64,000 bases of DNA, from the NCBI GenBank assembly GCA_030390025.1, contig CM059431.1, positions 139,998,001 through 140,062,000 of the forward strand. The letters run 5' to 3'. Both the position numbers and the translations under genes were made by a program. Source of the stretch: Squalus acanthias. Taxonomy: Eukaryota. This document shows positions 1,530 through 64,000 of this stretch, in pieces. The notes beneath the pieces were generated by a model. The model worked only from the letters and a program-made list of their open reading frames with translations. It was not told the origin of the DNA and did no database searches. Position 1 is the stretch's first letter, and each line of letters opens with the position of its first letter.

Positions 1530-2341
1530 TGTTAGATTCGAATTTGGAGAAACTCTAGACGGAGACGGAATTGAGGACAAGTTCAGAATTTATTAAAATA
1601 AACAAAAGACTTGTGCACAAGGGAGAGCCACTCAGCTTCCTCAAGCTAGGGGCGCACTCTCTGAGGAACAAGTAATGGTTCATTCAAGTTATACATTTCT
1701 ATAAGCACCGCCCACTTACTACAGAATGGGGCGTACACGTACAAACAGTGTCACTACAGTTACTCTCTATTGGTTATATGGTTAGTCACTCAACTGTCGG
1801 GCCCTCCCCTTGAACCCTGACCATGCCAGTCACAGATGTTGGTTGCCTCATCCTACTCCCCAAATTCTTGCTGTTATCTCTTCCTTTGCGGGCATAGTTT
1901 ATAGTTTGAGAAAACATATTTTATCCCTGGCTGTCGGACAGAGCGGGGTGGCTCAAGGCCGTAATGGCTTGGATGCTCAGTGACTGGAACCGTGTTGGTC
2001 ATTAATTGCTCCCTTATCTCTTGGGCGACCAGGTTCGAATAGTAGATGTACCCACCGTGCCTGGAACTGTGTTGGTTGTTAATTGCTCCCTTATCTCTTG
2101 GGAGGCCAGGCTGTGCTTTGACAATGGCTCTACTGAGGTTGTGAATACATATATCCCAAGGTTTGATAAGGGGAGGGAGGCACCTTCCAGTCTACAAATA
2201 TGCCTTAATTAGCTAAACCTACTATCCGAAATAAGTAGAGGGTAATGTAGTCAAGTATCCCAGCATTCTTTGGGAACAAGCAGGATCCTTCAGTAGTAGT
2301 CAAGTATCCCAGAGTTCTTTGGGAACAAGCTGGATCCTTCA
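1530..2341 (-). repeat. 3' LTR of ERV-A (812 bp)
   Basis: Direct repeat of 7824-8634; on the minus strand CCAAT (~1770), TATAGAA (~1700), AATAAA (1594-1589); ~49-bp tandem duplication at the U3 start. Confidence 0.95.
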
Positions 2342-2687: not shown

Positions 2688-4773
2688 TCATGCACATGAT
2701 TTCTCCAACAAGTTGTCAAAATCATCATCTGAAACACTTGGAGTAGGAGCAGTACAAGCATTAACAGTTTTAACCACTTGCTTTGCAATTTGTTTAGCCC
2801 GAGTCCGTTTACATTTCCTGCATGTCATACATAACAAGGTCAGGACAATTACTAACTGCACCACGACTAATACATATGAAATCAATCGGATCCATGGATG
2901 GATCTGTATATTTAGTCCCCAGTCCCAAATGTCATCCAGCCATGTGGTCACCTTGATCGCGCGATATCTTTCTTCAGATCCGTGTTCCGTTGTTGTAGAG
3001 TATAGTACACCTTCTGGGAGAGTCGTATCTCCTTTCGCAACTGCCTCAGGTGTTCGGGCAGGGGGGGTATAGGATACCCAAAGGTGTTGATGTAGTCCCA
3101 TAATCCATACTTGATGTCTTCAGACACTTGAAGAAAGGTAATATCAAACTGGTGTATGTCCACCAATTCCTCATGTCCAATCCGTACCGGAACTGCGGGG
3201 GTGAAGCAGAACTCTGAACTGGGGATGTTGCAAGTTAGATTGGCATACTCAAACGTTTTCAGGTTGGTCGTCACACAGTATTCGCCTTTGCCGGCGTACG
3301 CCACCTGGGTAGGCTTTGAGGCTGCGTCCAATGCTTCCATGGTGCAGTTAATTTCCATGCCTGTGTTATTAAAACCACATTGGGCTTGCGGGCTTTGGCT
3401 GATTGCATGCGGGCACATGATGATGGCATGTCTGGTGACACATCCCTCCAGCTTGGTACCCATCCAGTCTCCTTTCACCATCACTGCATAAGGTAATATA
3501 TTGTGGTAAGATATATGCATGCCATCTTTTAATATACCAATATTTTGTACCTGATACACCTCCCGCCCTTGTGTCTCTGGTGTCATTACCGGGACGACCA
3601 GAATTAGCCCCAGGAATCCCCCCCCCCGTCTGGTCTGCATTCAACCTGCGTGGGGAATACCCGTACCATGGCTCGGAATTGACAAACTGTCATATTGAGG
3701 CTACTTAAGAGATGTTTGGGTGTACCCGCCCCAGCGTGTCCACGAGTCAGGGTCCCTTTTAACTGTTGGTTGGTAATCCACAGGGGTACCTCCCCTGCCT
3801 GTATCTGTTCCAGGTTTTCTCGGGTTTGCTCCACTATCCAATTCCCATATGTGCTGCAAACGTCGTTTGCTGATGCCTGCTGTGAGGCATTGTATTCTTC
3901 TTTAATTAACTTATTTATAGTCTGTGCGTGTGTTTCTAACACAGTAGCTATATCCTGCAGGTATACGGTTAATATCTGGTCCTCCTTTAACTCTTGGTCC
4001 TCACTCTTATTTTGCTCTTGTAAAATAGCTTTAATGCGGGAACCCAGATCCCGGACCTTCTGATCTACGGTAGCCAGATCAATGGTGTTAACGACCGACG
4101 TGCCAGTGTTAAAAATCGTTGCTGCATCATTAACTAAAGACCTCTTACGTCGCCATACCCGCCGGCTTCCCTGTCTATATCCGCCTCCGCTACGATCCGC
4201 GCCTTGTTTCAATACCTGTGTTAGAAGGCGCTGGTATAACTGTTGGGTTTGTGGTGAGCACCAAGCAGGCAGGGCGGTGTTGGCCAGGTTTAGCACCACT
4301 GACACTAATTCATGACGCACATTATCATACAATATATCCCCAGTACGGGTGAACACCAACCCACTAGCGGGTCCCTCTTTCACGGGGGGGCAGGTCAGTG
4401 GCTCGCGCTCGGAGGGGAAAGGTGTTGTGGAAACCATTGGGGGCAGGGGTGTAGGGGGGGCACCCCAGTAGCAGTCGATAACCAGCGGTAGCCCGGGCTC
4501 CTCGTATTGTTCTATGATTCCGAAAGTCTGACATCTCTCTGAGGTAGGCGTGCATGAGGGGTCCCAGTGCCCCGCATTATTCTGACAGCATATCCTGTCC
4601 GTCTTCCCTGTGATTTTACTGGTACAAACTCCCCTGTGCGTTTTGTGTGGACCAGTAGTCATTTCACAGAAAAAGGGGGCTCCCGACCGGTCGACGCAGA
4701 ACCCCAGTGCCGTGATGGGTGTTGTTTGTTCACTGATCAGTATCCCTATCATTCCCATGATAAGCCACCCCAT
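2688..4773 (-). pseudogene. env: Envelope glycoprotein (class I fusion, F-protein-like), ~695 aa when joined, split by two 1-nt frameshifts (~3620, ~2960)
   Basis: Signal peptide MGWLIMGMIGILIS; furin site RRKR (4152-4141) followed by fusion-peptide/heptad region; Cys-rich block; Trp-rich membrane-proximal region; TM helix LISYVLVVVQLVIVLTLLC; ORFs 3604-4773, 2948-3640 and 2688-3101 overlap end to end. Confidence 0.88.
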
Positions 4774-4830
4774 GGTTATCCTATACCACCGCTAGGCAGA
4801 AGGAGTCCAATTTGTTTATCTGTCTCGACA

Positions 4831-5421
4831 CTAGCTTGTACAGTAGTAACTAGCAGGCTCTCTCTCTCTCTCTCTCTCTCTCCCTGTTTGTCCTGGTATT
4901 GGCCGTGTGCGCAGGGCTCGGAGCGGGGTTAGGGCTACTTCATATGTGGCATTGAGACGGTGGCCTTGTGACAGTGGCTCAATGTAACTTACCTGACTTA
5001 ACGTGATCCGGTAAGGGTTAGGAGCTGTCGGACGGGGATGGGTGAAGACAGGTTGCACTGTCCTCCTTCGGAGGTAGGAGGGTCTATAATAGGGAGTGGA
5101 TATCCCCTGGGGAAGGTCCTCCAGTCCCGACACCAGCGGTTCCCAAAGAGCAGCTGTATCTCGGAACCGGTCTGTCTCCCCTGCACGGGGTAGGGTGAAT
5201 AAAAGAGTCTGAGTTCTGTTGGGATGTAAAGCGAGGGGTCCGGTGGCCCTACCACAAAAGGGAGATAACCGGAACTCTAGAGTCAAGGGGTGAATCCCGG
5301 GGAAGGTTAGAGTCGTATAATAATGTGAGTTCGCGGGATCCCTGGTTAAGTCGAAAGCCTGGACCGTAGAAAGGTCGACATCCCCGGTAGTGGTGGCAGT
5401 ACTGAGGTCGGACCCACTCAT
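4831..5421 (-). CDS. Retroviral accessory ORF of unknown function (196 aa from the ATG at 5421)
   Basis: Open frame; ATG directly follows a canonical acceptor (TTTTACCTGTCTCTTTCTTACAG|ATG); homologous disrupted copy in ERV-B. Confidence 0.6.
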   Translation of the reverse strand: MSGSDLSTATTTGDVDLSTVQAFDLTRDPANSHYYTTLTFPGIHPLTLEFRLSPFCGRATGPLALHPNRTQTLLFTLPRAGETDRFRDTAALWEPLVSGLEDLPQGISTPYYRPSYLRRRTVQPVFTHPRPTAPNPYRITLSQVSYIEPLSQGHRLNATYEVALTPLRALRTRPIPGQTGREREREREPASYYCTS

Positions 5422-5944
5422 CTGTAAGAAAGAGACAGGTAAAATAGCAACCCGAGGAACCGACTTAATGCTTTGAAATCCGGTCCTGATCAAGTATAGG
5501 GGAGAAAAAGGCAGGTCAATACTTGTTTTTATTTCTTTTTAATTGTAAAACGAACACAACAGATATGTCTTTAAAAGGGTTGACAGCTTAAAAGGGTTAA
5601 CAGCTTTTAGCTCTCTGTACCAAAAGGTGGGTGGAGCTAACAGATACAACAGACATTTCCTCAAAAGGGTTAACAGCTTTTAGCTCTCTGTACCAAAAGG
5701 TGGGTGGAGCTAACAGATACAACAGGCACCCTTTTTAAAACAGACTTTCAGACCAAGGAAATACCGTAACTTCTTAGAGTTTATAGTCAGGAAACTTTCA
5801 CACAGACTTTCACACAGACTTACAGACAGACTGAGATCTCAGCATTCCCTTTAAGATTCCTTTCGCTCAGCAAATTCTGGATTTTACTTTTTTTTTTATT
5901 CTCCAAGAGGTGGGGAAATCTCTTCCCCGGGCCCCGTCACCGGC

Positions 5945-7212
5945 TTAGTCTGGCTCCATTTTAATACCCCCGGGTGCCGTGGTGGACCAGGGCAGAGAAG
6001 CTGGGGTGAGTCCTTGACAGGAGGCATGAAGGTCTGTCTGGTGAAGCCCAAAGTGTCGACTAGCCCACTCCCGGATTCCGGCCTCCGTGGGCTGGTGGCT
6101 GGCCCCCATTCGGAGGGCGGTTTGGTAGGGCTTTTCCAGCCCCTGGAGTAGATTATCTAAGAACCGTGGGTCGTCATGATTAGCGGGAATGTTATTCGTC
6201 TGGCCCCAATGTTCATACTGCTCGATTACTCGATCAATGTACACATTGGGGTTTTCTCCGGGACTCTGGCGCAGGGCGGTGAGCCCCACCCAGGTAGCGG
6301 TGCCGTTGCCCAGTCCAGCCTGCGCCCAGGTTTTTAAACCATTGAATTGGATCTCATACTCTGCTACCGTGGCTGGGACATTTAAGACATGGGGTCCCAA
6401 TGTCTCATAAACCATAGAGGGACATTTTACCTCAATAATATCTTTTATGTCTTGTATGGACAAATTAAAGTGCCGAGCAGCACTTCGTATTTTTGCCCAT
6501 ACTTCGACGTTAGGATTGTATCTTTTGAGGTCGGGAATGAGGAGGATGACGCTGGATCTCTCCTGGGGCGTAAAAGAATGAGCCTCGCCCATCATACCCC
6601 GTCCACCTATCTCTGCGTTTTGGGCTCCTGCTGCCGGATTAACTCGGACGGGGGCCGTGGGGTTGGATTTTCCTGCCCCAGACTGAAGCGGTAAGGTGGG
6701 ATAGATACTTGTGTATTCGGGGGGGCACGTGGGTTGGATGGCTTCAACTCGTTGAACCTTTACGGTCCCCGATGGGGGCCGGGGTTCTAGGATCGGTGTG
6801 TCTCGAGTCTCCTTTTGTAGAGCCTCAACAATGTCACCCCAGTTTTTCAAATCGTCTAGATTCTCAGTCCCTGGCGACTTAAGGTGCAGGAGATTGCTAA
6901 CTTGGACTTTAGCCTCCTGCATAGGTCTCAAGAATCCTTGAAACGGGGTCGGTCTTCCCCTCTTATCCACGATTATAGATCCCATCTGATCCATCCAACT
7001 AGTACACAGAACCGCCCCATACTTAGCTTGTTTGTTTTTTTTTGTTCCGCCCACCACTTTATTTGGTCAGCTACTGAGCTTGTTTCTTTCCACCCCTTTT
7101 TAACCATTTCACTCTGAAGTTTCAAATTAGCCTCTCGGACCTGTTGAACGACAGTGACACTGGTGGCCATAGCCGGAACGTCGGGTGAAAGAGATCTCCC
7201 CTTGTTTCCCAT
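5945..7212 (-). pseudogene. gag: Gag polyprotein (~422 aa when joined), 1-nt frameshift at the T9 run 7035-7043, C-terminally truncated (no CCHC)
   Basis: MG N-terminus; PPEY, YPTL, PTAP motifs; MHR-like LRQSPGENPNVYIDRV; ERV-B homolog reads through the frameshift site (EQKDGKQAKYG). Confidence 0.85.
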
Positions 7213-7789: not shown

Positions 7790-7802
7790 TCCTTACCTGC
7801 AG
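7790..7802 (-). promoter_or_regulatory. Putative major splice donor in the ERV-A leader
   Basis: CTGCAG|GTAAGG just downstream of the PBS; conserved in ERV-B (~23023-23034). Confidence 0.6.
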
Positions 7803-7803
7803 T

Positions 7804-7821
7804 ATCCCACTTCTGACACCA
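7804..7821 (-). promoter_or_regulatory. Primer binding site, tRNA-Leu(CAA)
   Basis: TGGTGTCAGAAGTGGGAT, complementary to the 3' 18 nt of vertebrate tRNA-Leu(CAA), 2 nt after the LTR end. Confidence 0.88.
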
Positions 7822-7823
7822 AC

Positions 7824-8634
7824 TGTTAGATTCGAATTTGGAGAAACTCTAGACGGAGACGGAATTGAGGACAAGTTCAGAATTTATTAAAATAAACAAA
7901 AGACTTGTGCACAAGGGAGAGCCACTCAGCTTCCTCAAGCCAGGGCGCACTCTCTGAGGAACAAGTAATGGTTCATTCAAGTTATACATTTCTATAAGCA
8001 CCGCCCACTTACTACAGAATGGGGCGTACACGTACAAACAGTGTCACTACAGTTACTCTCTATTGGTTATATGGTTAGTCACTCAACTGTCGGGCCCTCC
8101 CCTTGAACCCTGACCATGCCAGTCACAGATGTTGGTTGCCTCATCCTACTCCCCAAATTCTTGCTGTTATCTCTTCCTTTGCGGGCATAGTTTATAGTTT
8201 GAGAAAACATATTTTATCCCTGGCTGTCGGACAGAGCGGGGTGGCTCAAGGCCGTAATGGCTTGGATGCTCAGTGACTGGAACCGTGTTGGTCATTAATT
8301 GCTCCCTTATCTCTTGGGCGACCAGGTTCGAATAGTAGATGTACCCACCGTGCCTGGAACTGTGTTGGTTGTTAATTGCTCCCTTATCTCTTGGGAGGCC
8401 AGGCTGTGCTTTGACAATGGCTCTACTGAGGTTGTGAATACATATATCCCAAGGTTTGATAAGGGGAGGGAGGCACCTTCCAGTCTACAAATATGCCTTA
8501 ATTAGCTAAACCTACTATCCGAAATAAGTAGAGGGTAATGTAGTCAAGTATCCCAGCATTCTTTGGGAACAAGCAGGATCCTTCAGTAGTAGTCAAGTAT
8601 CCCAGAGTTCTTTGGGAACAAGCTGGATCCTTCA
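7824..8634 (-). repeat. 5' LTR of ERV-A (811 bp)
   Basis: By eye differs from 1530-2341 only at ~7940 (one substitution + 1-nt indel). Confidence 0.95.
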
Positions 8635-8715: not shown

Positions 8716-10130
8716 ACTAGCTCAACTGGACAGGGATCACCGCGCCAAGCACAGCTGGACAGAAAGACCCAGGGACTAGCTCAGCTGGACAGGGATACCC
8801 AGGGAATGGCACAGCTGGACAGAGATACAGAGGGACTAGCTCAGACGGACAGGGATACAGAGGGACTAGCTCAGATAGACAGGGATACCCAGGGAATGGC
8901 ACAGCTGGACAGGGATACAGAGGGACTAGCACTACTGGACAGAGATACCCAGGGAATGGCACAGCTGGACAGGGATACCCAGTGACAAGCACAGCTGGGC
9001 AGAGATACCCAGGGACTAGCACAGCTGGACAGAGATACCCAGGGACCAGCTTACTGGACAGGAATGCCCAGTGACAAGCACAGCTGGAGAGAGATACCCA
9101 GGGACTAGCAGAGCTGGACAGGGATACCCAGGGAATGGCACAGCTGGACAGGGATACCCAGGGACTAGCACAGCTAGACAGGGATACCCAGGGATTGGCA
9201 CAGCTGACAGATATACCATGCGACTAGCACAGCTGGACAGGGATACCCAGAGATTTGCACAGCTGGACAGGGATACCCAGGGACTAGCTCAGCTTCACAG
9301 GGATACCCAGGGACTAGCTCAGATGGAGAGGTATAGCCAGGGAATAGCACAGCTGGACAGCGAATCCCAGTGACTAGCACAGCTGGACAGCGATACCCAG
9401 TGACTAGCACAGCTGGACATGGAAACACAGTGACTGGCACAGCTGGACAGAGATACCCAGGGACCAGCACAGCTGGACAGGGATACCCAGGGAAAGGCAC
9501 AGCTGGACAGAGATACCCAGGGACTGGCACAGCTGGATAGGGATACCCCTGGAATAGCACAGCTGGACAGATACCCAGTGACTAGCATAGCTGGACAGGG
9601 ATACCCAGGGACTAGCTCAGATGGAGAGGGATAGCTAGGGACCAGCACAGCAGGACAGAGATACCCAAGGACGAGCACAGCTGGACAGAGATACCTAGGG
9701 ACCAGCACAGCTGGGCAGAGAAACCCGGGGCCAGCAGAGCTGGACTGAGATAACCAGGGACCAGCACAGCTGGACAGAGATACCCAGGGACCAGCACAGC
9801 AGGACAGAGATACCCAGGGACTAGCACAGCAGGACAAAGATACCCAGGGACCAGCACAGCTGGACAGAGATACCCTGGGACTAGCACAGCTGGACAGGGA
9901 TACCCAGGGACTAGCACAGCTGGACAGAGATACCCAGGGACTAGCACAGCTGGACAGAGATACTCAGGTACTAGCACAGCAGGACAGAGATACCCAGGGA
10001 CCAGCACAGCTGGACAGAGATACTCAGGGACTAGCTCAGATGGACAGAGATACCCTGGGACTAGCTCAGATAGACAGAGATACCCTGGGACTAGCACAGA
10101 TGGGCAGGGATACCCTGGGATTAACACTGC
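8716..10130. repeat. 30-bp minisatellite (CTAGCACAGCTGGACAGAGATACCCAGGGA)n
   Basis: About 47 tandem units with 30-bp period. Confidence 0.95.
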
Positions 10131-10429
10131 ACTTTTACTCGTGTTTATAGATTGTTTCCGAGGTCCAATTGTGATTTGAGTTTTCATCAGTATTAACCGG
10201 TCCTGTCCTCTCCAGGGGAGTGTTGTGTATTTTTAAAGGGTATGTATTGCAATAAGGGGGCATGAGATTGTCAAATTTCCTCTTTCATTGTCTGCTAATT
10301 GACACTAGCTATTTCTCTCTGGTGTTTAAAACCGCGTATACGTTTCAGGTCATTTACCTGTCGGTTTACATATTCCAGACTGCATAATGCATTCCTCCCG
10401 CCCCCACTCACACCCACAAACACACACTT

Positions 10430-51159: not shown

Positions 51160-52092
51160 TCACGTATCTCCAGGGCAGTCCTCAGTTGTCGCATCTGTCA
51201 GTGCTTTCCAGTAGCTCAGCATCTCGGAGGGTTTCACCCCGTGAGAGGTCACGAGTTTCCGAAAGTCGCAAATAGAAAACGGGACCTTTGAATTGTAGAA
51301 TGCTTGCCGCGAGTGGATTTCCACCGGCGCTATCTTCAACTTAGCCACGCAAAGAGCGACGAAAACGTCCTCGAGTTTCAATCTGGGGACGGTATTCGAA
51401 ACGGTCCAAACTCGGCAGGCGACATCGGTCGACAGCACGTACCCAGTGCCAGAGCAGAATGGCGGATACGTTTCCACAGGGTATTCCTGTTCACTCACGT
51501 ACCATTTACTAGATTTGTCCCTGTTGGGTCTTGCATTTCTCTGTATGTAGCCGGTGAAGATATTCCTGCGAGTGGTACGTGACAGGAGGAGCTTTCTCAG
51601 ATAATCAGCGTTGACAAACATGTCTGAATCGGTTTTCATCACAAAGGAGGCGGATGGACAAAATCGGCTCACCCATTCCAGGCCCATCAGCACCTTGGTG
51701 GTCAGGTTGTAATAAGTGTCGCTGAACTCTTTCTGTATGATGTCTTTGTGCAGTAAACCTTCCTCCAGCAGATGCTTCTGATGCTCCCGGCTGTACCCGA
51801 GCAGGAAGTAGGTCACTACCCTCTTGCCATGTGATGTCCGCTCTCTGCCCCAGGTCTGGCGAATGGCTGAGCGAGCTTCGAACTGATCCTGGGCACTGGT
51901 GACAAGAAGGATCAGGAATGGGGGACTGACGTCACACCTGCTGTCGGGTCGCATTAAGAAGGAGCCGTCATTTAAATCTGGGTAATGCGAATAGTCAGAA
52001 ATGTTGCGGCTTAAATATCCGAGTAATATATATATCAGCAAAAGGGTCACACAAACAAATGAACATTTGTAGTACGTCATTAGGAACACCAT
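51160..52092 (-). CDS. B3GALT5: Beta-1,3-galactosyltransferase 5-like (GT31), single coding exon, 310 aa
   Basis: N-terminal TM anchor; R.AIRQTWG, DTYYNLT.K, FVMKTDSDMFVN (DxD), YPPFCSGTGYV, LEDVF motifs; intact ORF; splice acceptor TTTCTTTTGTTTTACAG at ~52128. Exact paralog assignment is less certain than the family. Confidence 0.88.
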   Translation of the reverse strand: MVFLMTYYKCSFVCVTLLLIYILLGYLSRNISDYSHYPDLNDGSFLMRPDSRCDVSPPFLILLVTSAQDQFEARSAIRQTWGRERTSHGKRVVTYFLLGYSREHQKHLLEEGLLHKDIIQKEFSDTYYNLTTKVLMGLEWVSRFCPSASFVMKTDSDMFVNADYLRKLLLSRTTRRNIFTGYIQRNARPNRDKSSKWYVSEQEYPVETYPPFCSGTGYVLSTDVACRVWTVSNTVPRLKLEDVFVALCVAKLKIAPVEIHSRQAFYNSKVPFSICDFRKLVTSHGVKPSEMLSYWKALTDATTEDCPGDT

Positions 52093-52239
52093 ATTGCACC
52101 AGAAAATATCCTAATGTTTTAAATCAGCTGTAAAACAAAAGAAACAATTTGATTTTGGTAGATTCCGGGTAATTCAAGGGGAAAACTTTCCAGTTTAAGA
52201 ATATTTGGCTCGATTAGTAACATAAAGGTCTGATGGTAG

Positions 52240-55200
52240 AAACAGTGGATGTCCAAAGTTAGAAAGAGTGGTGTACCAATGCTAAAAACAGTGGAGGTCC
52301 AATGCTAAAAACACTGGAGGTGCAAAGCTAGCAACAATAGAGGTTCATAGCAATAAACCGTGGCGATCCAAAGTGAGAAAAAGTGGAGGTCCAAAGTTAG
52401 AAAGAGTGAAGGTCCAAAGCTAGAAAGAGTGAAGGTCCAAAGCTAGAAACTGTGAAGGTCCAAAGCTAGAAAGAGTGACGGTCCAAAGCTTGAAACAGTG
52501 AAGGTCCAAAGCTGGAAAGAGTGGAGTCCAAGCTAGAAACTGCGAAGGTACAAAGCTAGAAAGAGTGGAGGTCCAAAGCTAGAAAGAGTGGAGTTCCAAA
52601 CCTAGAAACTGTGAAGGTCCAAAGCTAGAAACTGTGAAGTTCCAAAGCTAGAAACTGTGAAGGTCCAAAGCTAGAAAGAGTGGAGGTCCAAAGCTAGAAA
52701 TTGTGAAGGTCCAAATCTAGAAACAGTGGAGGACCAAAGCTAGAATCTGTGAAGGTCCAAAGCGAGAAACTGTGAAGGTCCAAAGCTAGAAAGAGTGGAG
52801 GTTCAAAGCTAGAAACAGTGGAGGTCCAAAGCTAGAAAGAGTGAAGGTCCAAAGCTAGAAACAGTGGAGGTCCAAAGCTAGAAACAGTGAAGGTCCAAAG
52901 CTAGAAACAGTGAAGGTCCAAAGCTAGAAACAGTGGAGTTCCAAAGCTAGAAACAGTGAAGGTCCAAAGCCAGAAACAGTGGAGGTCCAAAGCTAGAAAC
53001 AGTGGAGGTCCAAAGCTAGAAACTTTGGTGTCCAAAGCTAGAAACAGTGGAGGTCCAAAGCTAGAAAGAGTAAAGGTCCAAAGCTAGAAACAGTGGAGGT
53101 CCGAAGCTAGAAACAGTGGAGGTCCAAAGCTAGAAACTGTGAAGGTCCAAAGCTAGAAACATTGAAGGTCCAAAGGTAGAAAGAGTGAAGGTCCAAAGCT
53201 AGAAACAGTGGGGTTCCAAAGCAAGAAACAGTGAAGGTCCAAATCTAGAAAATGTGAAGGTCCAAAGCTAGAAACAGTGAAGGTCCAAATCTAGAAACAG
53301 TGGACGTCCAAAGCTAGAAACTGTGAAGATCCAAAGCTAGAAACAGTGAAGGTCCAAAGCTAGAAAGAGTGGAGGTCAAAAACTAGAAACTGTGAAGGTC
53401 CAAAGCTAGAAACTGTGAAGGTCCAAAGCTAGAAACAATGAAGGTCCAAAGCTAGAAACAGTGCAGGTCCAAAGCTAGAAACAGTGACGGTTCAAAGATA
53501 GAAACTGTTAAGGTCCAACGCTAGAAACAGTGGTGGTCCAAAGCTAGAAATAGTGGAGGTCCAAAGCTAGAAACAGTGGAGGTCCAAAGCTAGAAACTGT
53601 GATGATCCAAAGCTAGAAACTGTGAAGGACCAAAGCTAGAAACAGTGGAGGTTCAAAGCTAGAAACTGTGAAGGTCCAAAGCTAGAAACAGTGAATATCC
53701 AAAGCTAGAAACAGTGAAGGTCCAAAGCTAGATAGAGTGAAGATCCAAAGCTGGAAAGAGAAGACATCCAAAGCTAAAAACAGTGGAGGTCCAAAGGTAG
53801 AAAGAGTGAAGGTCCAAAGCTAGAAAGAGTGAAGGTCCAAAGCTAGAAACAGTGGAGATCCAAAGCTAGAAAGCGTGAATGTCCAATGCGAGAAAAAGTG
53901 GAGATCCAATGCTAGAAACAGTGCAGGTCCAAAGCTAGAAACCGTGGAGAACCTAAGCAAAAAGATTGAATGTCCAAAGCTAGAAAGAGTGTAGATCCAA
54001 AGCTAGAAACAGTGGCGATCCAAAGCTAGAAACAGTGATGGTCCAAATCTAGCAATAGAGGAGGTCCAAAGCTAGAAAGACTGAAGTCCAAAGCTAGAAA
54101 CAGTGGAGATCCAAAGCTAGAAACAGTGGAGATCCAAAGCTAGAAACAGTAATGGACATCAGCTAGAAACAGTGTAGCTCGAAAGCTAGAAACAGTGGAG
54201 GTCCAAAGCTAGAAACAGTGAAGGTCCAATGCTAGAAACAGTGGAGGTCCACAGTTAGATACAGTGGAGATACAAAGCTGGAAACAGTGAAGGTCCAAAG
54301 CTAGAAGCAGTGGAGCTCCAAAGCTAGAAACAGTGGAGATACAAAGCTGGAAACAGTGAAGGTCCAAACCTAGAAAAAGTGGAGGTCCAAAGCTAGAAAC
54401 TGTGAAGATCCAAAGCTAGAAACAGTGAAGAGCAAAAGCTAGAAACAGTGGAGGTCCAAAGCTAGAAACAGTGGAGGTCCAAAGCTAGAAACAGTGAAGG
54501 TCCAAAGCTAGAAACAGTGAAGGTTCAAAGCTAGAAACTGTGAAGGTCCAAAGCTAGAAACAGTGAAGATCCAAAGCTAGAAACAGTGGAGATACAAAGC
54601 TGGAAACAGTGAAGGTCCAAAACTAGAAACTGCGAAGGTCCAAAGCTAGAAACTGTGAAGGTCGAAAGCTAGAATCAATGAAGTTCCAAAGCTAGAAACA
54701 GTGGAGGTCCAAACCAAGAAACAGTGAAGATCCAAAGCTAGAAAGAGTGAAGGTCCAAAGTAAGAAACAGTGGAGATCCAAAGCTAGAAAGAGTTAATTT
54801 CCAATGCTAGAAAAAGTGGAGATCCAATGCTAGAAACAGTGGAGGTCGAAAGCTAGAAACAGTGGAGGTCCAAAGCTAGAAAGATTAAATGTCCAAAGCT
54901 AGAAAGAGTGCAGGTCCAAAGCTAGAAAAAGTGGAGATCCAAAGCAAGAAACAGTGAAGGTCCAATGCTAGAAACAGTGGAGGTCCAAAGCTAGAAAGGC
55001 TGAAGGTCCAAAGCTAGAAACAGTGAAGGTCCAAAGCTAGAAACTGTGAAGGTACAAAGCTAGAAACAGTGGAGATCCAAAGCTAGAAACAGTGAAGGTC
55101 CAAAGCTAGAAACTGTGAAGGTACAAAGCTAGAAACATTGGAGATTCAAAGCTAGAAACAGTGGAGATCGAAAGCTAGAAACAGTGGAGTTCCAAAGCTA

Positions 55201-58200
55201 GAAACAGTGAAGGTCCAATGCTAGAAACAGTGGAGGTCCAAAGTTAGAAACAGTGGAGATACAAAGCTGGAAACAGTGAAGGTCGAAAGCTAGAAACAGT
55301 GGAGCTCCAAAGCTAGAAACAGTGGAGATACAAAGCTGGATACAGTGAAGGTCCAAAGCTAGAAACAGTGGAAGTCCAAAGCTAGAAACAGTGTAGCTCC
55401 AAAGCTAGAAACAGTGGAGGTCCAAAGCTAGAAACAGTGGAGATACAAAGCTGGAAACAGTGAAGGTGCAAAGCTAGAAACAGTGGAGGTCCAAAGCTAG
55501 AAACAGTGAAGGTCCAAAGCTAGAAACAGTGAAGATCCAAAGCTAGAAACAGTGAAGAGCAAAAGCTAGAAACAGTGGAGGTCCAAAGCTAGAAACAGTG
55601 GAGGTCCAAAGCTAGAAAGAGTGAAGGTCCAAAGCTAGAAACAGTGGAGGTCCAAAGCTAGAAACAGTGAAGGTCCAAAGCTAGAAACAGTGAAGGTCCA
55701 AAGCTAGAAACAGTGGAGTTCCAAAGCTAGAAACAGTGAAGGTCCAAAGCCAGAAACAGTGGAGGTCCAAAGCTAGAAACAGTGGAGATCCAAAGCTAGA
55801 AACTTTGGTGTCCAAAGCTAGAAACAGTGGAGGTCCAAAGCTAGAAAGAGTAAAGGTCCAAAGCTAGAAACAGTGGAGGTCCGAAGCTAGAAACAGTGGA
55901 GGTCCAAAGCTAGAAACTGTGAAGGTCCAAAGCTAGAAACATTGAAGGTCCAAAGCTAGAAAGAGTGAAGGTCCAAAGCTAGAAACAGTGGGGTTCCAAA
56001 GCAAGAAACAGTGAAGGTCCAAATCTAGAAAATGTGAAGGTCCAAAGCTAGAAACAGTGAAGGTCCAAATCTAGAAACAGTGGACGTCCAAAGCTAGAAA
56101 CTGTGAAGATCCAAAGCTAGAAACAGTGAAGGTCCAAGCTAGAAAGAGTGGAGGTCAAAAACTAGAAACTGTGAAGGTCCAAAGCTAGAAACTGTGAAGG
56201 TCCAAAGCTAGAAACAATGAAGGTCCAAAGCTAGAAACAGTGCAGGTCCAAAGCTAGAAACAGTGACGGTTCCAAAGATAGAAACTGTGAAGGTCCAACG
56301 CTAGAAACAGTGGAGGTCCAAAGCTAGAAAGAGTGGAGGTCCAAAGCTAGAAACAGTGGAGGTCCAAAGCTAGAAACTGTGGATGATCCAAAGCTAGAAA
56401 CTGTGAAGGACCAAAGCTAGAAACAGTGGAGGTTCAAAGCTAGAAACTGTGAAGGTCCAAAGCTAGAAACAGTGAATATCCAAAGCTAGAAACAGTGAAG
56501 GTCCAAAGCTAGATAGAGTGAAGATCCAAAGCTGGAAAGAGAAGACATCCAAAGCTAAAAACAGTGGAGGTCCAAAGGTAGAAAGAGTGAAGGTCCAAAG
56601 CTAGAAAGAGTGAAGGTCCAAAGCTAGAAACAGTGGAGATCCAAAGCTAGAAACAGTAAAGAGCAAAAGCTAGAAACAGCGGAGATCCAAAGCTAGAAAC
56701 AGTGGAGATCCAAAGCTAGAAACAGTAATGGACATCAGCTAGAAACAGTGTAGCTCGAAAGCTAGAAACAGTGGAGGTCCAAAGCTAGAAACAGTGAAGG
56801 TCCAATGCTAGAAACAGTGGAGGTCCACAGTTAGATACAGTGGAGATACAAAGCTGGAAACAGTGAAGGTCCAAAGCTAGAAGCAGTGGAGCTCCAAAGC
56901 TAGAAACAGTGGAGATACAAAGCTGGAAACAGTGAAGGTCCAAACCTAGAATAAGTGGAGGTCCAAAGCTAGAAACTGTGAAGATCCAAAGCTAGAAACA
57001 GTGAAGAGCAAAAGCTAGAAACAGTGGAGGTCCAAAGCTAGAAACAGTGGAGGTCCAAAGCTAGAAACAGTGAAGGTCCAAAGCTAGAAACAGTGAAGGT
57101 TCAAAGCTAGAAACTGTGAAGGTCCAAAGCTAGAAACAGTGAAGATCCAAAGCTAGAAACAGTGGAGATACAAAGCTGGAAACAGTGAAGGTCCAAAACT
57201 AGAAACTGCGAAGGTCCAAAGCTAGAAACTGTGAAGGTCGAAAGCTAGAATCAATGAAGTTCCAAAGCTAGAAACAGTGGAGGTCCAAACCTAGAAACAG
57301 TGAAGATCCAAAGCTAGAAAGAGTGAAGGTCCAAAGCTAGAAACAGTGGAGATCCAAAGCTAGAAAGAGTTAATGTCCAATGCTAGAAAAAGTGGAGATC
57401 CAATGCTAGAAACAGTGGAGGTCGAAAGCTAGAAACAGTGGAGGTCCAAAGCTAGAAAGATTAAATGTCCAAAGCTAGAAAGAGTGCAGGTCCAAAGCTA
57501 GAAAAAGTGGAGATCCAAAGCAAGAAACAGTGAAGGTCCAATGCTAGAAACAGTGGAGGTCCAAAGCTAGAAAGGCTGAAGGTCCAAAGCTAGAAACAGT
57601 GAAGGTCCAAAGCTAGAAACTGTGAAGGTACAAAGCTAGAAACAGTGGAGATCCAAAGCTAGAAACAGTGAAGGTCCAAAGCTAGAAACTGTGAAGGTAC
57701 AAAGCTAGAAACATTGGAGATTCAAAGCTAGAAACAGTGGAGATCGAAAGCTAGAAACAGTGGAGTTCCAAAGCTAGAAACAGTGAAGGTCCAATGCTAG
57801 AAACAGTGGAGGTCCAAAGTTAGAAACAGTGGAGATACAAAGCTGGAAACAGTGAAGGTCGAAAGCTAGAAACAGTGGAGCTCCAAAGCTAGAAACAGTG
57901 GAGATACAAAGCTGGATACAGTGAAGGTCCAAAGCTAGAAACAGTGGAAGTCCAAAGCTAGAAACAGTGTAGCTCCAAAGCTAGAAACAGTGGAGGTCCA
58001 AAGCTAGAAACAGTGGAGATACAAAGCTGGAAACAGTGAAGGTGCAAAGCTAGAAACAGTGGAGGTCCAAAGCTAGAAACAGTGAAGGTCCAAAGCTAGA
58101 AACAGTGAAGGTCCAAAGCTAGAAACGGTGGAGATACAAAGCTGGAAACAGTGAAGGTCCAAAGCTAGAAACAGTGGAGCTCCAAAGCTAGAAACAGTGG

Positions 58201-61200
58201 AGGTCCAAAACTAGAAACTGTGAAGGTCCAAAGCTAGAAACAGTGAAGGTCCAAAGATAGAAACTGTGAAGGTCCAAAGCTAGAAACAGTGGAGATCCAA
58301 AGCTAGAAACAGTGGAGATCCAAAGCTAGCAACAGTAATGGACATAAGCTAGAAACAGTGTAGCTCGAAAGCTAGAAACAGTGGAGGTCCAAAGCTAGAA
58401 ACAGTGAAGGTCCAATGCTAGAAACAGTGAAGGTCCACAGTTAGATACAGTGGAGATACAAAGCTGGAAACAGTGAAGGTCCAAAGCTAGAAGCAGTGGA
58501 GCTCCAAAGCTAGAAACAGTGGAGATACAAAGCTGGAAACAGTGAAGGTCCAAACCTAGAAAAAGTGGAGGTCCAAAGCTAGATCTGTGAAGATCCAAAG
58601 CTAGAAACAGTGAAGAGCAAAAGCTAGAAACAGTGGAGGTCCAAAGCTAGAAACTGTGGAAGGTCCAAAGCTAGAAACTGTGAAGGTCCAAAGCTAGATA
58701 CTGTGAAGGTCCAAAGCTAGAAACAGTGAAGGTTCAAAGCTAGAAACTGTGAAGGTCCAAAGCTAGAAACAGTGAAGATCCAAAGCTAGAAACAGTGGAG
58801 ATACAAAGCTGGAAACAGTGAAGGTCCAAAACTAGAAACTGCGAAGGTCCAAAGCTAGAAACTGTGAAGGTCGAAAGCTAGAATCAATGAAGTTCCAAAG
58901 CGAGAAGCAGTGGAGCTCCAAAGCTAGAAACAGTGGAGATACAAAGCTGGAAACAGTGAAGGTCCAAACCTAGAAAAAGTGGAGGTCCAAAGCTAGATCT
59001 GTGAAGATCCAAAGCTAGAAACAGTGAAGAGCAAAAGCTAGAAACAGTGGAGGTCCAAAGCTAGAAACTGTGGAGGTCCAAAGCTAGAAACTGTGAAGGT
59101 CCAAAGCTAGATACTGTGAAGGTCCAAAGCTAGAAACAGTGAAGGTTCAAAGCTAGAAACTGTGAAGGTCCAAAGCTAGAAACAGTGAAGATCCAAAGCT
59201 AGAAACAGTGGAGATACAAAGCTGGAAACAGTGAAGGTCCAAAACTAGAAACTGCGAAGGTCCAAAGCTAGAAACTGTGAAGGTCGAAAGCTAGAATCAA
59301 TGAAGTTCCAAAGCTAGAAACAGTGGAGGTCCAAACCAAGAAACAGTGAAGATCCAAAGCTAGAAAGAGTGAAGGTCCAAAGTAAGAAACAGTGGAGATC
59401 CAAAGCTAGAAAGAGTTCATTTCCAATGCTAGAAAAAGTGGAGATCCAATGCTAGAAACAGTGGAGGTCGAAAGCTAGAAACAGTGGAGATCCAAAGCTA
59501 GAAAGATTAAATGTCCAAAGCTAGAAAGAGTGCAGGTCCAAAGCTAGAAAAAGTGGAGATCCAAAGCTAGAAACAGTGAAGGTCCAAAGCTAGAAACAGT
59601 GGAGGTCCAAAGCTAGAAAGGCTGAAGGTCCAAAGCTAGAAACAGTGAAGGTCCAAAGCTAGAAACTGTGAAGGTACAAAGCTAGAAACAGTGAAGGTCC
59701 AAAGCTAGAAACAGTGGAGCTCCAAAGCTAGAAACAGTGGAGATACAAAGCTGGAAACAGTGAAGGTCCAAAGCTAGAAACAGTGGAGGTCCAAAGCTAG
59801 AAACAGTGAAGGTCCAAAGCTAGAAACAGTGGAGGTCCAAAGCTAGAAACAGTGGAGATACAAAGCTAGAAACAGTGAAGGTCCAAAGCTAGAAACAGTG
59901 GAGGTCCAAAGCTAGAAACAGTGAAGGTCCAAAGCTAGAAACAGTGAAGGTCCAAAGCTAGAAACAGTGGAGATACAAAGCTAGAAACAGTGAAGGTCCA
60001 AAGCTAGAAACAGTGGAGCTCCAAAGCTAGAAACAGTGGAGGTCCAAAACTAGAAACTGTGAAGGTCCAAAGCTAGAAACAGTGAAGGTCCAAAGATAGA
60101 AACTGTGAAGGTCTAACGCTAGAAACAGTGGTGGTCCAAAGCTAGAAATAGTGGTGGTCCAAAGCTAGAAACAGTGGAGGTCCAAAGCTAGAAACTGTGA
60201 AGATCCAAAGCTAGAAACAGTGAAGGTCCAAAGCCAGAAACAGTGGAGGTCCAATTATAGAGACAGTGAAGGTCCAAAGCTAGAAACTGTGAAGGTCCAA
60301 AGCTAGAAACTGTGAAGGACCAAAGCTAGAAACAGTGGAGGTTCAAAGTTAGAAACTCGGAAGGTCCAAAGCTAGAAACAGTGAATATCCAAAGCTAAAA
60401 ACAGTGAAGGTCCAAAGCTAGATAGAGTGAAGATCCGAAGCTGGAAAGAGAGGACATCCAAAGCTAGAAACAGTGGAGGTCCAAAGGTAGAAACAGTGAA
60501 GGTCCAAAGCTAGAAAGAGTGAAGATCCAAAGCTAGAAACAGTGGAGATCCAAAGCTAGAAAGAGTGAATGTCCAATGCTAGAAAAAGTGGAGATCCAAT
60601 GCTAGAAACAGTGCAGGTCCAAAGCTAGAAACAGTGGAGATCCAAAGCAAAAAGATTAAATGTCCAAAGCTAGAAAGAGTGTAGATCCAAAACTAGAAAC
60701 AGTGATGGTCCAAATCTAGCAAAAGCGGAGGTCCAAAGCTAGAAAGACTGAAGGTCCAAAACTAGAAACAGTGGAGATCCAATCTAGAAACAGTGGAGAT
60801 ACAAAGCTAGAAACAGTAGTAGACATAAGCTAGAAACAGTGGAGCTCCAAAGCTAGAAACAGTGGAGGCCCAAAGCTAGAAACAGTGAAGGTCCAAAGCT
60901 AGAAGCAGTGGAGCTCCAAAGCTAGAAACAGTGGAGATACAAAGCTGGAAACAGTGAAGGTCCAAACCTAGAAAAAGTGGAGGTCCAAAGCTAGAAACTG
61001 TGAAGATCCAAAGCTAGAAACAGTGAAGAGCAAAAGCTAGAAACAGTGGAGGTCCAAAGCTAGAAACAGTGGAGGTCCAAAGCTAGAAACAGTGAAGGTC
61101 CAAAGCTAGAAACAGTGAAGGTTCAAAGCTAGAAACTGTGAAGGTACAAAGCTAGAAACAGTGGAGATCCAAAGCTAGAAACAGTGAAGGTCCAAAGCTA

Positions 61201-64000
61201 GAAACTGTGAAGGTACAAAGCTAGAAACATTGGAGATTCAAAGCTAGAAACAGTGGAGATCGAAAGCTAGAAACAGTGGAGTTCCAAAGCTAGAAACAGT
61301 GAAGGTCCAATGCTAGAAACAGTGGAGGTCCAAAGTTAGAAACAGTGGAGATACAAAGCTGGAAACAGTGAAGGTCGAAATCGAGAAACAGTGGAGCTCC
61401 AAAGCTAGAAACAGTGGAGATACAAAGCTGGATACAGTGAAGGTCCAAAGCTAGAAACAGTGGAAGTCCAAAGCTAGAAACAGTGTAGCTCCAAAGCTAG
61501 AAACAGTGGAGGTCCAAAGCTAGAAACAGTGGAGATACAAAGCTGGAAACAGTGAAGGTGCAAAGCTAGAAACAGTGGAGGTCCAAAGCTAGAAACAGTG
61601 AAGGTCCAAAGCTAGAAACAGTGAAGGTCCAAAGCTAGAAACGGTGGAGATACAAAGCTGGAAACAGTGAAGGTCCAAAGCTAGAAACAGTGGAGCTCCA
61701 AAGCTAGAAACAGTGGAGGTCCAAAACTAGAAACTGTGAAGGTCCAAAGCTAGAAACAGTGAAGGTCCAAAGATAGAAACTGTGAAGGTCCAACGCTAGA
61801 AACAGTGGTGGTCCAAAGCTAGAAATAGTGGTGGTCCAAAGCTAGAAACAGTGGAGGTCCAAAGCTAGAAACTGTGAAGATCCAAAGCTAGAAACAGTGA
61901 AGGTCCAAAGCCAGAAACAGTGGAGGTCCAATTATAGAGACAGTGAAGGTCCAAAGCTAGAAACTGTGAAGGTCCAAAGCTAGAAACTGTGAAGGACCAA
62001 AGCTAGAAACAGTGGAGGTTCAAAGTTAGAAACTCGGAAGGTCCAAAGCTAGAAACAGTGAATATCCAAAGCTAAAAACAGTGAAGGTCCAAAGCTAGAT
62101 AGAGTGAAGATCCGAAGCTGGAAAGAGAGGACATCCAAAGCTAGAAACAGTGGAGGTCCAAAGGTAGAAACAGTGAAGGTCCAAAGCTAGAAAGAGTGAA
62201 GATCCAAAGCTAGAAACAGTGGAGATCCAAAGCTAGAAAGAGTGAATGTCCAATGCTAGAAAAAGTGGAGATCCAATGCTAGAAACAGTGCAGGTCCAAA
62301 GCTAGAAACAGTGGAGATCCAAAGCAAAAAGATTGAATGTCCAAAGCTAGAAAGAGTGTAGATCCAAAACTAGAAACAGTGATGGTCCAAATCTAGCAAA
62401 AGCGGAGGTCCAAAGCTAGAAAGACTGAAGGTCCAAAACTAGAAACAGTGGAGATCCAATCTAGAAACAGTGGAGATACAAAGCTAGAAACAGTAGTAGA
62501 CATAAGCTAGAAACAGTGGAGCTCCAAAGCTAGAAACAGTGGAGGCCCAAAGCTAGAAACAGTGAAGGTCCAATGCTCGAAACAGTGGAGGTCCAAAGTT
62601 AGAAACAGTGGAGATACAAAGCTGGAAACAGTGAAGGTCCAAAGCTAGAAACAGTGGAGCTCCAAAGCTAGAAACAGTGGAGATACAAAGCTGGAAACAG
62701 TGAAGGTCCAAACCTAGAAAAAGTGGAGGTCCAAAGCTAGAAACTGTGAAGATCCAAAGCTAGAAACAGTGAAGAGCAAAAGCTAGAAACAGTGGAGGTC
62801 CAAAGCTAGAAACAGTGGAGGTCCAAAGCTAGAAACAGTGAAGGTCCAAAGCTAGAAACAGTGAAGGTCAAAGCTAGAAACTGTGAAGGTCCAAAGCTAG
62901 AAACAGTGAAGATCCAAAGCTAGAAACAGTGGAGATCCAAAGCTAGAAACAGTGAAGGTCCAAAGCTAGAAACTGTGAAGGTCCAAAGCTAGAAACTGTG
63001 AAGGTCCAAAGCTAGAAACAGTGAAGGTTCCAAAGCTAGAGACAGTGGAGGTCCAAACCTAGAAACAGTGGAGATCCAAAGCTAGAAACAGTGAAGGTCC
63101 AATGCTAGAAACAGTGGAGGTCCAAAGCTAGAAATGCTGAAGGTCCAAAGCTAGAAACAGTGGAGGTCCAAAGCTAGAAACAGTGAAGGTCCAATGCTAG
63201 AAACAGTGGAGGTCCAAAGCTAGAAACAGTGGAGATACAAAGTTGGAAACAGTGAAGGTCCAAAGCTAGAAACAGTGGAGCTCCAAAGCTAGAAACAGTG
63301 GAGATACAAAGCTGGATAAAGTGAAGGTCCAAAGCTAGAAACAGTGGAGATCCAAAGCTAGACACAGTGAAGGTCCAAAGCTAGAAACTGTGAAGGTGCA
63401 AAGCTAGAAAGAGTGAAGGTCCAAAGCTAGAAAGAGAGGAGATCCAAAGCTAGAAACAGTGGAGTTCCAAAGCTAGAAAGAGTGAAGGTCCGAAGCTAGA
63501 AACAGTGGAGATACAAAGCTGGAAACAGTGAAGGTCCAAACCTAGAAAAAGTGGAGGTCCAAAGCTAGAAACTGTGAAGATCCAAAGCTAGAAACAGTGA
63601 AGAGCAAAAGCTAGAAACAGTGGAGGTCCAAAGCTAGAAACAGTGGAGGTCCAAAGCTAGAAACAGTGAAGGTCCAAAGCTAGAAACAGTGAAGGTTCAA
63701 AGCTAGAAACTGTGAAGGTCCAAAGCTAGAAACAGTGAAGATCCAAAGCTAGAAACAGTGGAGATACAAAGCTGGAAACAGTGAAGGTCCAAAACTAGAA
63801 ACTGTGAAGGTCCAAAGCTAGAAACTGTGAAGGTCCAAAGCTAGAAACAATGAAGTTCCAAAGCTAGAGACAGTGGAGGTCCAAACCTAGAAACAGTGGA
63901 GATCCAAAGCTAGAAACAGTGAAGGTCCAATGCTAGAAACAGTGGAGGTCCAAAGCTAGAAATGCTGAAGGTCCAAAGCTAGAAACAGTGGAGGTCCAAA
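52240..64000. repeat. 23-bp satellite (TCCAAAGCTAGAAACAGTG[G/A]AGG)n with higher-order duplications
   Basis: About 500 tandem units running to the window end. Confidence 0.97.

Follow-up and report, generated by a model that had tools for sequence, protein, structure and literature searches.

Provirus A and ORF X

The window analyzed here, a 64,000-nucleotide stretch of the Squalus acanthias genome, carries on its minus strand an endogenous retrovirus (8634-1530, provirus A) with 812-bp LTRs, a primer binding site (PBS), a shortened gag, no pol, an open reading frame that we call ORF X, and env (Table 1). The target duplication of provirus A is 4 bp long (ACGC). We take the PBS to be of the tRNA-Leu type, and ARAGORN gave no confirmation of the tRNA identity at the two loci tried. 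The gag region contains the late-domain motifs PPEY, YPTL and PTAP, and another copy of the family (L033) has a longer gag with two CCHC knuckles. Frameshifts near 3620 and 2960 break the env frame of provirus A, and no further long ORF is seen after env. A short-unit tandem array (8720-10230) adjoins the provirus. The window also contains a second provirus (provirus B, 15405-23780), a single-exon host ORF of 316 codons on the minus strand (51163-52110), whose motifs read to us like those of a beta-1,3-galactosyltransferase, presumably its product, and a 23-bp satellite that fills the window end (52100-64000) with no fewer than 470 units.

Table 1. Positions of proviral features in the window
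Feature	Position	Strand	Remarks
5' LTR, provirus A	7824..8634	-	TG...CA; TATAA at 7986, AATAAA at 7888; 99.75% identical to 3' LTR
PBS	7804..7821	-
Major splice donor CAG|GTAAGG	7791..7799	-	Exon end 7797; behind PBS
gag	5945..7211	-	3'-truncated, frameshift near 7040
Splice acceptor 1 (TTTACCTGTCTCTTTCTTACAG)	5422..5440	-	Directly before ORF X
ORF X	4831..5421	-	196 aa in provirus A; conserved core about codons 1-180
Candidate consensus donor CAG|GTAAGT	4987..4995	-	After codon 143 of X; no joint among those listed
GA microsatellite	4847..4893	-	Variable length shifts frame of X tail
Proposed acceptor 2 (CTCCTTCTGCCTAG)	4792..4805	-	Unsupported
env	2688..4773	-	Signal peptide, Cys-rich domain, RRKR site, long ectodomain with hints of F type, membrane anchor
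3' LTR, provirus A	1530..2341	-
Broken X copy, provirus B	19170..20020	-	Acceptor kept, ATG lost

ORF X consists of 196 stop-free codons (ATG at 5421-5419, stop at 4833-4831), and the acceptor TCTCTTTCTTACAG, whose last base is 5422, lies directly ahead of it. A stop-free run of this length was obtained in 30 of 20,000 base shuffles when any of three frames was allowed, and the remaining five frames across ORF X contain 6-12 stops each. When the host genome (3.7 Gb) was searched with X, 140 matching pieces were found among the best 150 of 197 candidates. We examined the 30 top-ranking loci together with 40 selected as diverged, and later 10 more found through their integrase. The AG|ATG at the start of X is present in 69 of the 70 aligned loci, and the 70th is without that part. 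An earlier reading of the window made without database searches (the sequence-only reading) had proposed a 196-aa stop-free ORF behind a strong acceptor and a donor CAG|GTAAGG behind the PBS at 7797/7796, and both are borne out. The proposed length of 196 aa stands only in part: about 180 codons are conserved, and the tail, which crosses a G/GA microsatellite, may reach its stop in each of the three frames (open copies are 191-267 aa long).

Most present-day copies of X are decaying. At least 180 open codons are kept at 32 of the 70 loci, a count that is biased upward because the loci were picked as best matches. A 37-nt frameshifting deletion is common to all 12 copies examined in the gamma subfamily, and a stop at codon 138 is common to 11 copies of an alpha sub-lineage. 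Since the copies with either defect have spread, X is dispensable in cis for copying, and its retention in an element that lost pol, previously read as a sign of function, is no such sign. The X stretch of provirus B had been described as conserved except for the ATG; it also has the 37-nt deletion, an insertion of ~250 nt (19770-19522) and in-frame stops, and it is homologous DNA in which the gene is dead. At one locus (L047, G000:C12:968580-978570) a natural deletion fuses ~148 X codons in frame with mid-env, giving a 398-codon frame.

The X protein has a pI of 9.3, no signal peptide and no membrane segment (maximum 19-residue KD, 0.63). It gave no match to Pfam, to PDB sequences or, in usable form, to the ESM Atlas, and none of 223 candidates from 5.8 billion clusters was related (candidate lengths of 107-343 only). 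A profile of X run against 1.84 billion representatives returned two matches (E = 2e-7 and 3e-4), which were rejected as tandem-repeat proteins with 7 and 4 weak stretches summed. The AlphaFold2 model has a pLDDT of 35.6, so the Foldseek comparison that the sequence-only reading had recommended (best viral E = 0.07) is unusable.

The retroviral family and an X-less sister

ORF X is shared by four groups of elements (alpha, beta, gamma and delta), whose gag, pol and env are not alike. Provirus A itself is without pol, and it is from pol-bearing copies (L048, L071-L073, L076) that the proposed location of X, between pol and env, can be seen: in these X starts ~400-480 nt after the pol stop. The pol pieces comprise protease, RT, tether, RNase H and integrase. 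By score, not by tree, the RT-tether piece is closest to the MLV type (105 bits, residues 3-273), followed by foamy (61 bits) and Ty3 (40 bits, residues 7-191), and the same order is seen against PDB (MLV-type 1e-29, foamy 1e-15, Ty3 3e-9, lentiviral RT 1e-4). The integrase matches MLVIN_C at 8e-6, which is below the curated cut-off. The element is thus likely to be class I-like (gamma/epsilon-like), as far as scores rather than a tree can place it. Membership in the lokiretroviruses was considered and dropped, since the RT scores far better to MLV than to Ty3. Env gave no match to Pfam or PDB sequences. In Foldseek, the top nine rows for its model (pLDDT 38) consist of pneumovirus F (hMPV, RSV) and foamy Env, with E values of 0.003-0.05, a hint that env may be of F type.

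The subfamilies are mosaic (e.g., 15405-23780; L051-L066; L031-L046). Provirus B and its kin contain the integrase of another family, remains of a second env and AT-rich filler, and another subfamily keeps X and is without gag and the env 5' part. Related families (L081-L090, L038, L050) share the core of the putatively F-type env and have wholly different N-terminal domains, and L086/L087 combine a gamma-type env with a related integrase. Env modules have thus been swapped among related families. Some pol-less copies lie head to tail, ~6.2-6.3 kb apart (L067; G000:C29:9454000-9470000; G000:C20:13697000-13706400), with extra LTR copies upstream at L067. In Heptranchias perlo, two gene models (P0001, P0121) are fused from pieces of this ERV group, with 85% identity to the integrase and 65% to env. 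A 1154-bp tandem array with a tRNA-like sequence complementary to the PBS was also found (G000:C13:49375889-49403668; G000:C575).

A sister family without X was found in the same genome, with 41 matches among the best 40 of 150 candidate places. Its integrase is ~80% and its env 62-72% identical to those of the X family. It has the homologous acceptor and ~45-80 nt behind it, a stretch with no start codon and no X, and in 18 of 20 loci the first ATG is that of env, at +104 to +107 behind the acceptor. The first ~25 codons of X are homologous to this non-coding UTR, and ~540 nt of X are absent from the sister. Because the X-less sister has a homologous site 105 nt before env, the alignment identifies the acceptor at 5422 as the env acceptor by descent. 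The earlier proposal of an accessory gene with its own acceptor is supported for the gene and its splice from 7797 to 5421, and unsupported for an acceptor of its own, the site at 5422 being homologous to the env site of the sister. The donor behind the PBS is missing in five of five sister copies checked, and the acceptor of that family is a predicted one. Sister copies L111-L115 have the same PBS and, ~115 nt further, GGCGAGT (GGTGAGT in one copy), a possible donor.

On parsimony, a gain of X is likely simpler than a loss. In a search for a third lineage to polarise the two, the env N-terminal domain was found, among the best 150 of 160 candidates, only in the X family and in sister-matching places (38-48%). 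Ten of ten more distant loci, representing about five families, contain no ORF of at least 60 codons between pol and env. We consider it rather likely that X was gained behind an env acceptor already in place, once its family had separated from the sister, and that Env is made from the same RNA.

Splicing and selection at ORF X

Ten public runs were on offer, none recorded as RNA and eight guessed to be RNA, and we examined four of them (X1-X4). The runs were examined as contigs, from which level, strand and rare isoforms are unreadable and from which rare forms are dropped. The joint 7797->5421 anticipated by the sequence-only reading, which has GT-AG borders and skips 2375 nt, was found in three of the four runs guessed to be RNA (X1, X2 and X4) and not in X3. 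X1 and X2 stem from one study, X4 from a second study with a different organism code. Over 294 nt, one joined contig matches provirus A without a difference, and only 2 of 69 other loci match it equally well. The joined form 7797/5421 has no copy in the genome, as compared with 89 exact unspliced copies of the donor, and spliced retro-copies were absent from the genome for both joints searched. The spliced RNA has no AUG between the TATAA box (7986) and X. If transcription starts ~25-30 nt behind this box, the X AUG would be the first on the spliced RNA, and in that case X was probably translated.

A lentivirus-like arrangement, with X and env each on its own singly spliced mRNA from the acceptors at 5422 and 4792, is in our view unlikely. 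The sequence proposed as second acceptor is present: no other pyrimidine-rich AG occurs from 5000 to 4700, the site lies 18 nt before the env ATG, its AG is kept in 52 of the 66 covered loci, and the subfamily lacking that AG (GG in all 13 covered copies, out of 14 GG loci in total) also lacks this part of the env 5' end. Its pyrimidine tract is, however, short and variable, no joint to 4791 occurs among the 15 of 18 joints listed from the contigs of the four runs, and each of the four runs has contigs that read through 4791 without a splice. These contigs may derive from full-length RNA, and a rare form would have been dropped from them. The junction 7797->4791, and with it the claim of at least two spliced mRNAs, thus found no support among the joints listed.

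We regard it as still less probable that X serves as a cytoplasmic leader in a long form of Env, with a second splice 4993->4791 joining codons 1-143 of X in frame to env. Long Env leaders exist in foamy viruses and betaretroviruses, the perfect donor CAG|GTAAGT after codon 143 (4993) is present in 55 of 70 loci in phase 0 and in frame with env at 4791, and the unstable microsatellite would then sit in an intron. Against such a leader, the donor has AT in place of GT in the other 15 loci, including four of the eight in the pol-bearing delta group, no joint from 4993 is among those listed, codons 144-178 also lean synonymous (5/7, P = 0.04), and env has a signal-like start of its own, as in the sister family.

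Selection on X was assessed by using only differences fixed between subfamilies, permuted over sites with the same base. Among 47 such differences in codons 27-178, 28 are synonymous as compared with 16.0 expected (omega ~0.35, P = 0.0007), whereas the two other frames of the region give omega values of 1.9 and 1.3. The result is similar after removal of CpG changes (omega 0.42, P = 0.003), and the same test gives 0.35 for gag and 0.34 for env (0.20-0.38 for env before indel edges were masked). Among 18 non-coding control frames there was likewise one that passed (leader; P = 0.003, then 0.013 after indel edges were masked). We do not take this result as a sign of coding in the 5' leader, where every frame has stops and 14 indels are shared. 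In a whole-tree codon model of 64 distinct rows, X has an omega of 0.75, which fits better than omega = 1 (2dlnL = 8.6) and is diluted by neutral decay after insertion, so that the dN/dS across copies for which the sequence-only reading had called is below 1 by both approaches. The count of shared versus private codon changes in X, taken alone, is weak (82/60 vs 115/59). Few shared indels are found in X, namely one of 2 nt (two copies), one of 9 nt (three copies), a 6-nt repeat unit and the 37-nt deletion of one subfamily, as compared with 14 in 270 nt of the leader, 20 in 495 nt of the LTR and 13 in 341 nt of the 3' UTR. X was thus under frame-specific purifying selection, at a level with gag and env. 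A rival reading takes the X stretch for non-coding sequence, either env 5' UTR or a cis-acting RNA element, whose frame is open by chance. This reading would fit the lack of a homologue and of a Pfam or PDB match, the low pLDDT (36), the homology of the first ~25 codons with the sister UTR, the spread of broken copies and the false signal in one control frame, but is very improbable given a synonymous bias that is frame-specific and equal to that of gag and env, the scarcity of frameshifts, the near-universal ATG and the rarity of such an open frame by chance.

A proposed role for X and its known counterparts

Several features of an accessory gene can be recognized in X: it is an ORF other than gag, pol and env inside an LTR-bounded provirus, purifying selection acts in its frame, and a spliced subgenomic RNA, seen as a joint in three of four runs guessed to be RNA, would have its AUG first. 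X is likely a real orphan accessory gene. Its start context is weak (CAG-AUG-A, with C at -3 and A at +4), that of env is strong (ACC-AUG-G), and between the two starts lie three uORFs of 11, 5 and 2 codons. There are 3 ATGs in these 643 nt as compared with 7.9 expected from base shuffles (P = 0.04), a deficit that is not significant in a dinucleotide model (P = 0.36). From the weak start, the strong start and the three tiny uORFs between them, we infer an mRNA shared by X and env. The splice 7797->5421 would place the X AUG first, the weak X start would let ribosomes scan on to the strong env start (leaky scanning), and a small intracellular accessory protein and Env would be produced from one message. 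In HIV-1, the small gene vpu encodes a membrane protein of ~80 aa, and its weak start stands ahead of the strong env start on one spliced RNA. X and vpu have the same order of weak and strong starts; X is without a hydrophobic segment, and its leaky scanning is predicted. A shared X/env message read by leaky scanning is more probable than not. Taken together, we favor, with a probability of roughly 0.6, the reading that X, from a class I-like ERV, was under purifying selection, has its message formed by the splice 7797->5421 and likely encoded an accessory protein whose mRNA would be shared with Env.

What the X protein might do is a matter of speculation. It contains no lysine as compared with 4.0 expected (P = 0.011), and a PTAP, the TSG101 motif, is present at residues 131-134 in 56 of 70 loci and changed in the other 14 (chance of P[ST]AP in X, 0.028); both tests were chosen after looking. 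Because of these two features X might be a trans adaptor to the host ubiquitin/ESCRT machinery, for example removing a host antiviral factor or aiding release, a guess we hold to be doubtful. Lysine-free stretches are described as common in ubiquitin-pathway proteins in the parts of two papers available to us (PMC10169902, PMC10665810).

The sequence-only reading placed X where lentiviruses carry vif. Vif lies between pol and env and is a basic protein of ~190 aa, and X is like it in position, size and basicity. There is, however, no sequence or Pfam match between them, the pol of the X family is class I-like and not lentiviral, and X does not overlap pol. With no PDB match to the Vif family either and a fold model too poor to compare, the likeness to vif comes down to position.

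That a fish ERV of foamy-like type can hold an orphan ORF in its pol-env interval is already known. In the consulted part of PMC5210030, the teleost foamy-like ERVs DrFV-2, PpERV-1 and AcERV carry such ORFs under purifying selection, with dN/dS of 0.13-0.19 for ORF-1 and 0.48-0.82 for AcERV ORF-2. The present element resembles them in having a pol-env orphan ORF with dN/dS < 1 in a fish ERV. As far as descriptions can be compared, they differ in being foamy-like, with 1.3-kb ORFs and more genes behind env, whereas the X family has an MLV-like pol, an ORF of ~0.55 kb and an observed splice. Epsilon-like class I ERVs of fish and sharks, according to the sections consulted, share with the present family an MLV-like RT and integrase C-terminal domain, a gag followed by a stop and an in-frame protease, and a 4-bp target duplication (PMC4422223, PMC4977317, bioRxiv 2021.11.23.469661). 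Some of them in fish have extra ORFs (CNPase, macro domain), as excerpts of PMC4977317 report. Within the portions consulted, the survey of epsilon-related ERVs with gamma-type env reports no accessory gene (bioRxiv 2021.11.23.469661), the elephant-shark ERV paper does not mention one (PMC4422223), and PMC12690878 and PMC5388530 contain nothing bearing on one. The present env is by layout not gamma-type, and X is not a captured enzyme known to any library. Lokiretroviruses, as described in the portion of PMC7947760 at hand, have an Env with an RXKR site that is like pneumo/paramyxovirus F, some with an extra gene (smc); their RT is sister to all retroviruses, their tether is nearer to Ty3 than to MLV, and the host classes listed there do not include sharks. 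The F-like env would be alike in the two, whereas the RT and tether of the X family are nearer to MLV and X is not SMC-like. No description of the X family came up in literature searches; supplementary files to PMC7947760, to PMC4422223 and to the envelope survey on bioRxiv, which lie beyond the text consulted, and repeat libraries could hold one.

More tentatively, a shark lineage with a gamma/epsilon-type polymerase and a putatively F-type env may have gone from simple to complex by gaining the lysine-free, PTAP-bearing X inside its env leader, the env mRNA now serving two genes and X still being spliced. The way in which retroviruses acquire accessory genes is poorly documented, before-and-after pairs being rare, and here the X family and an X-less sister with a homologous acceptor are found in one genome. 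If this scenario is true, the simple sister beside it in the same genome would make the birth of an accessory gene directly testable, and X, as an accessory protein of orphan type in a retrovirus of cartilaginous fish, could be a lead to an antiviral pathway of the host and thus to a shark antiviral factor.
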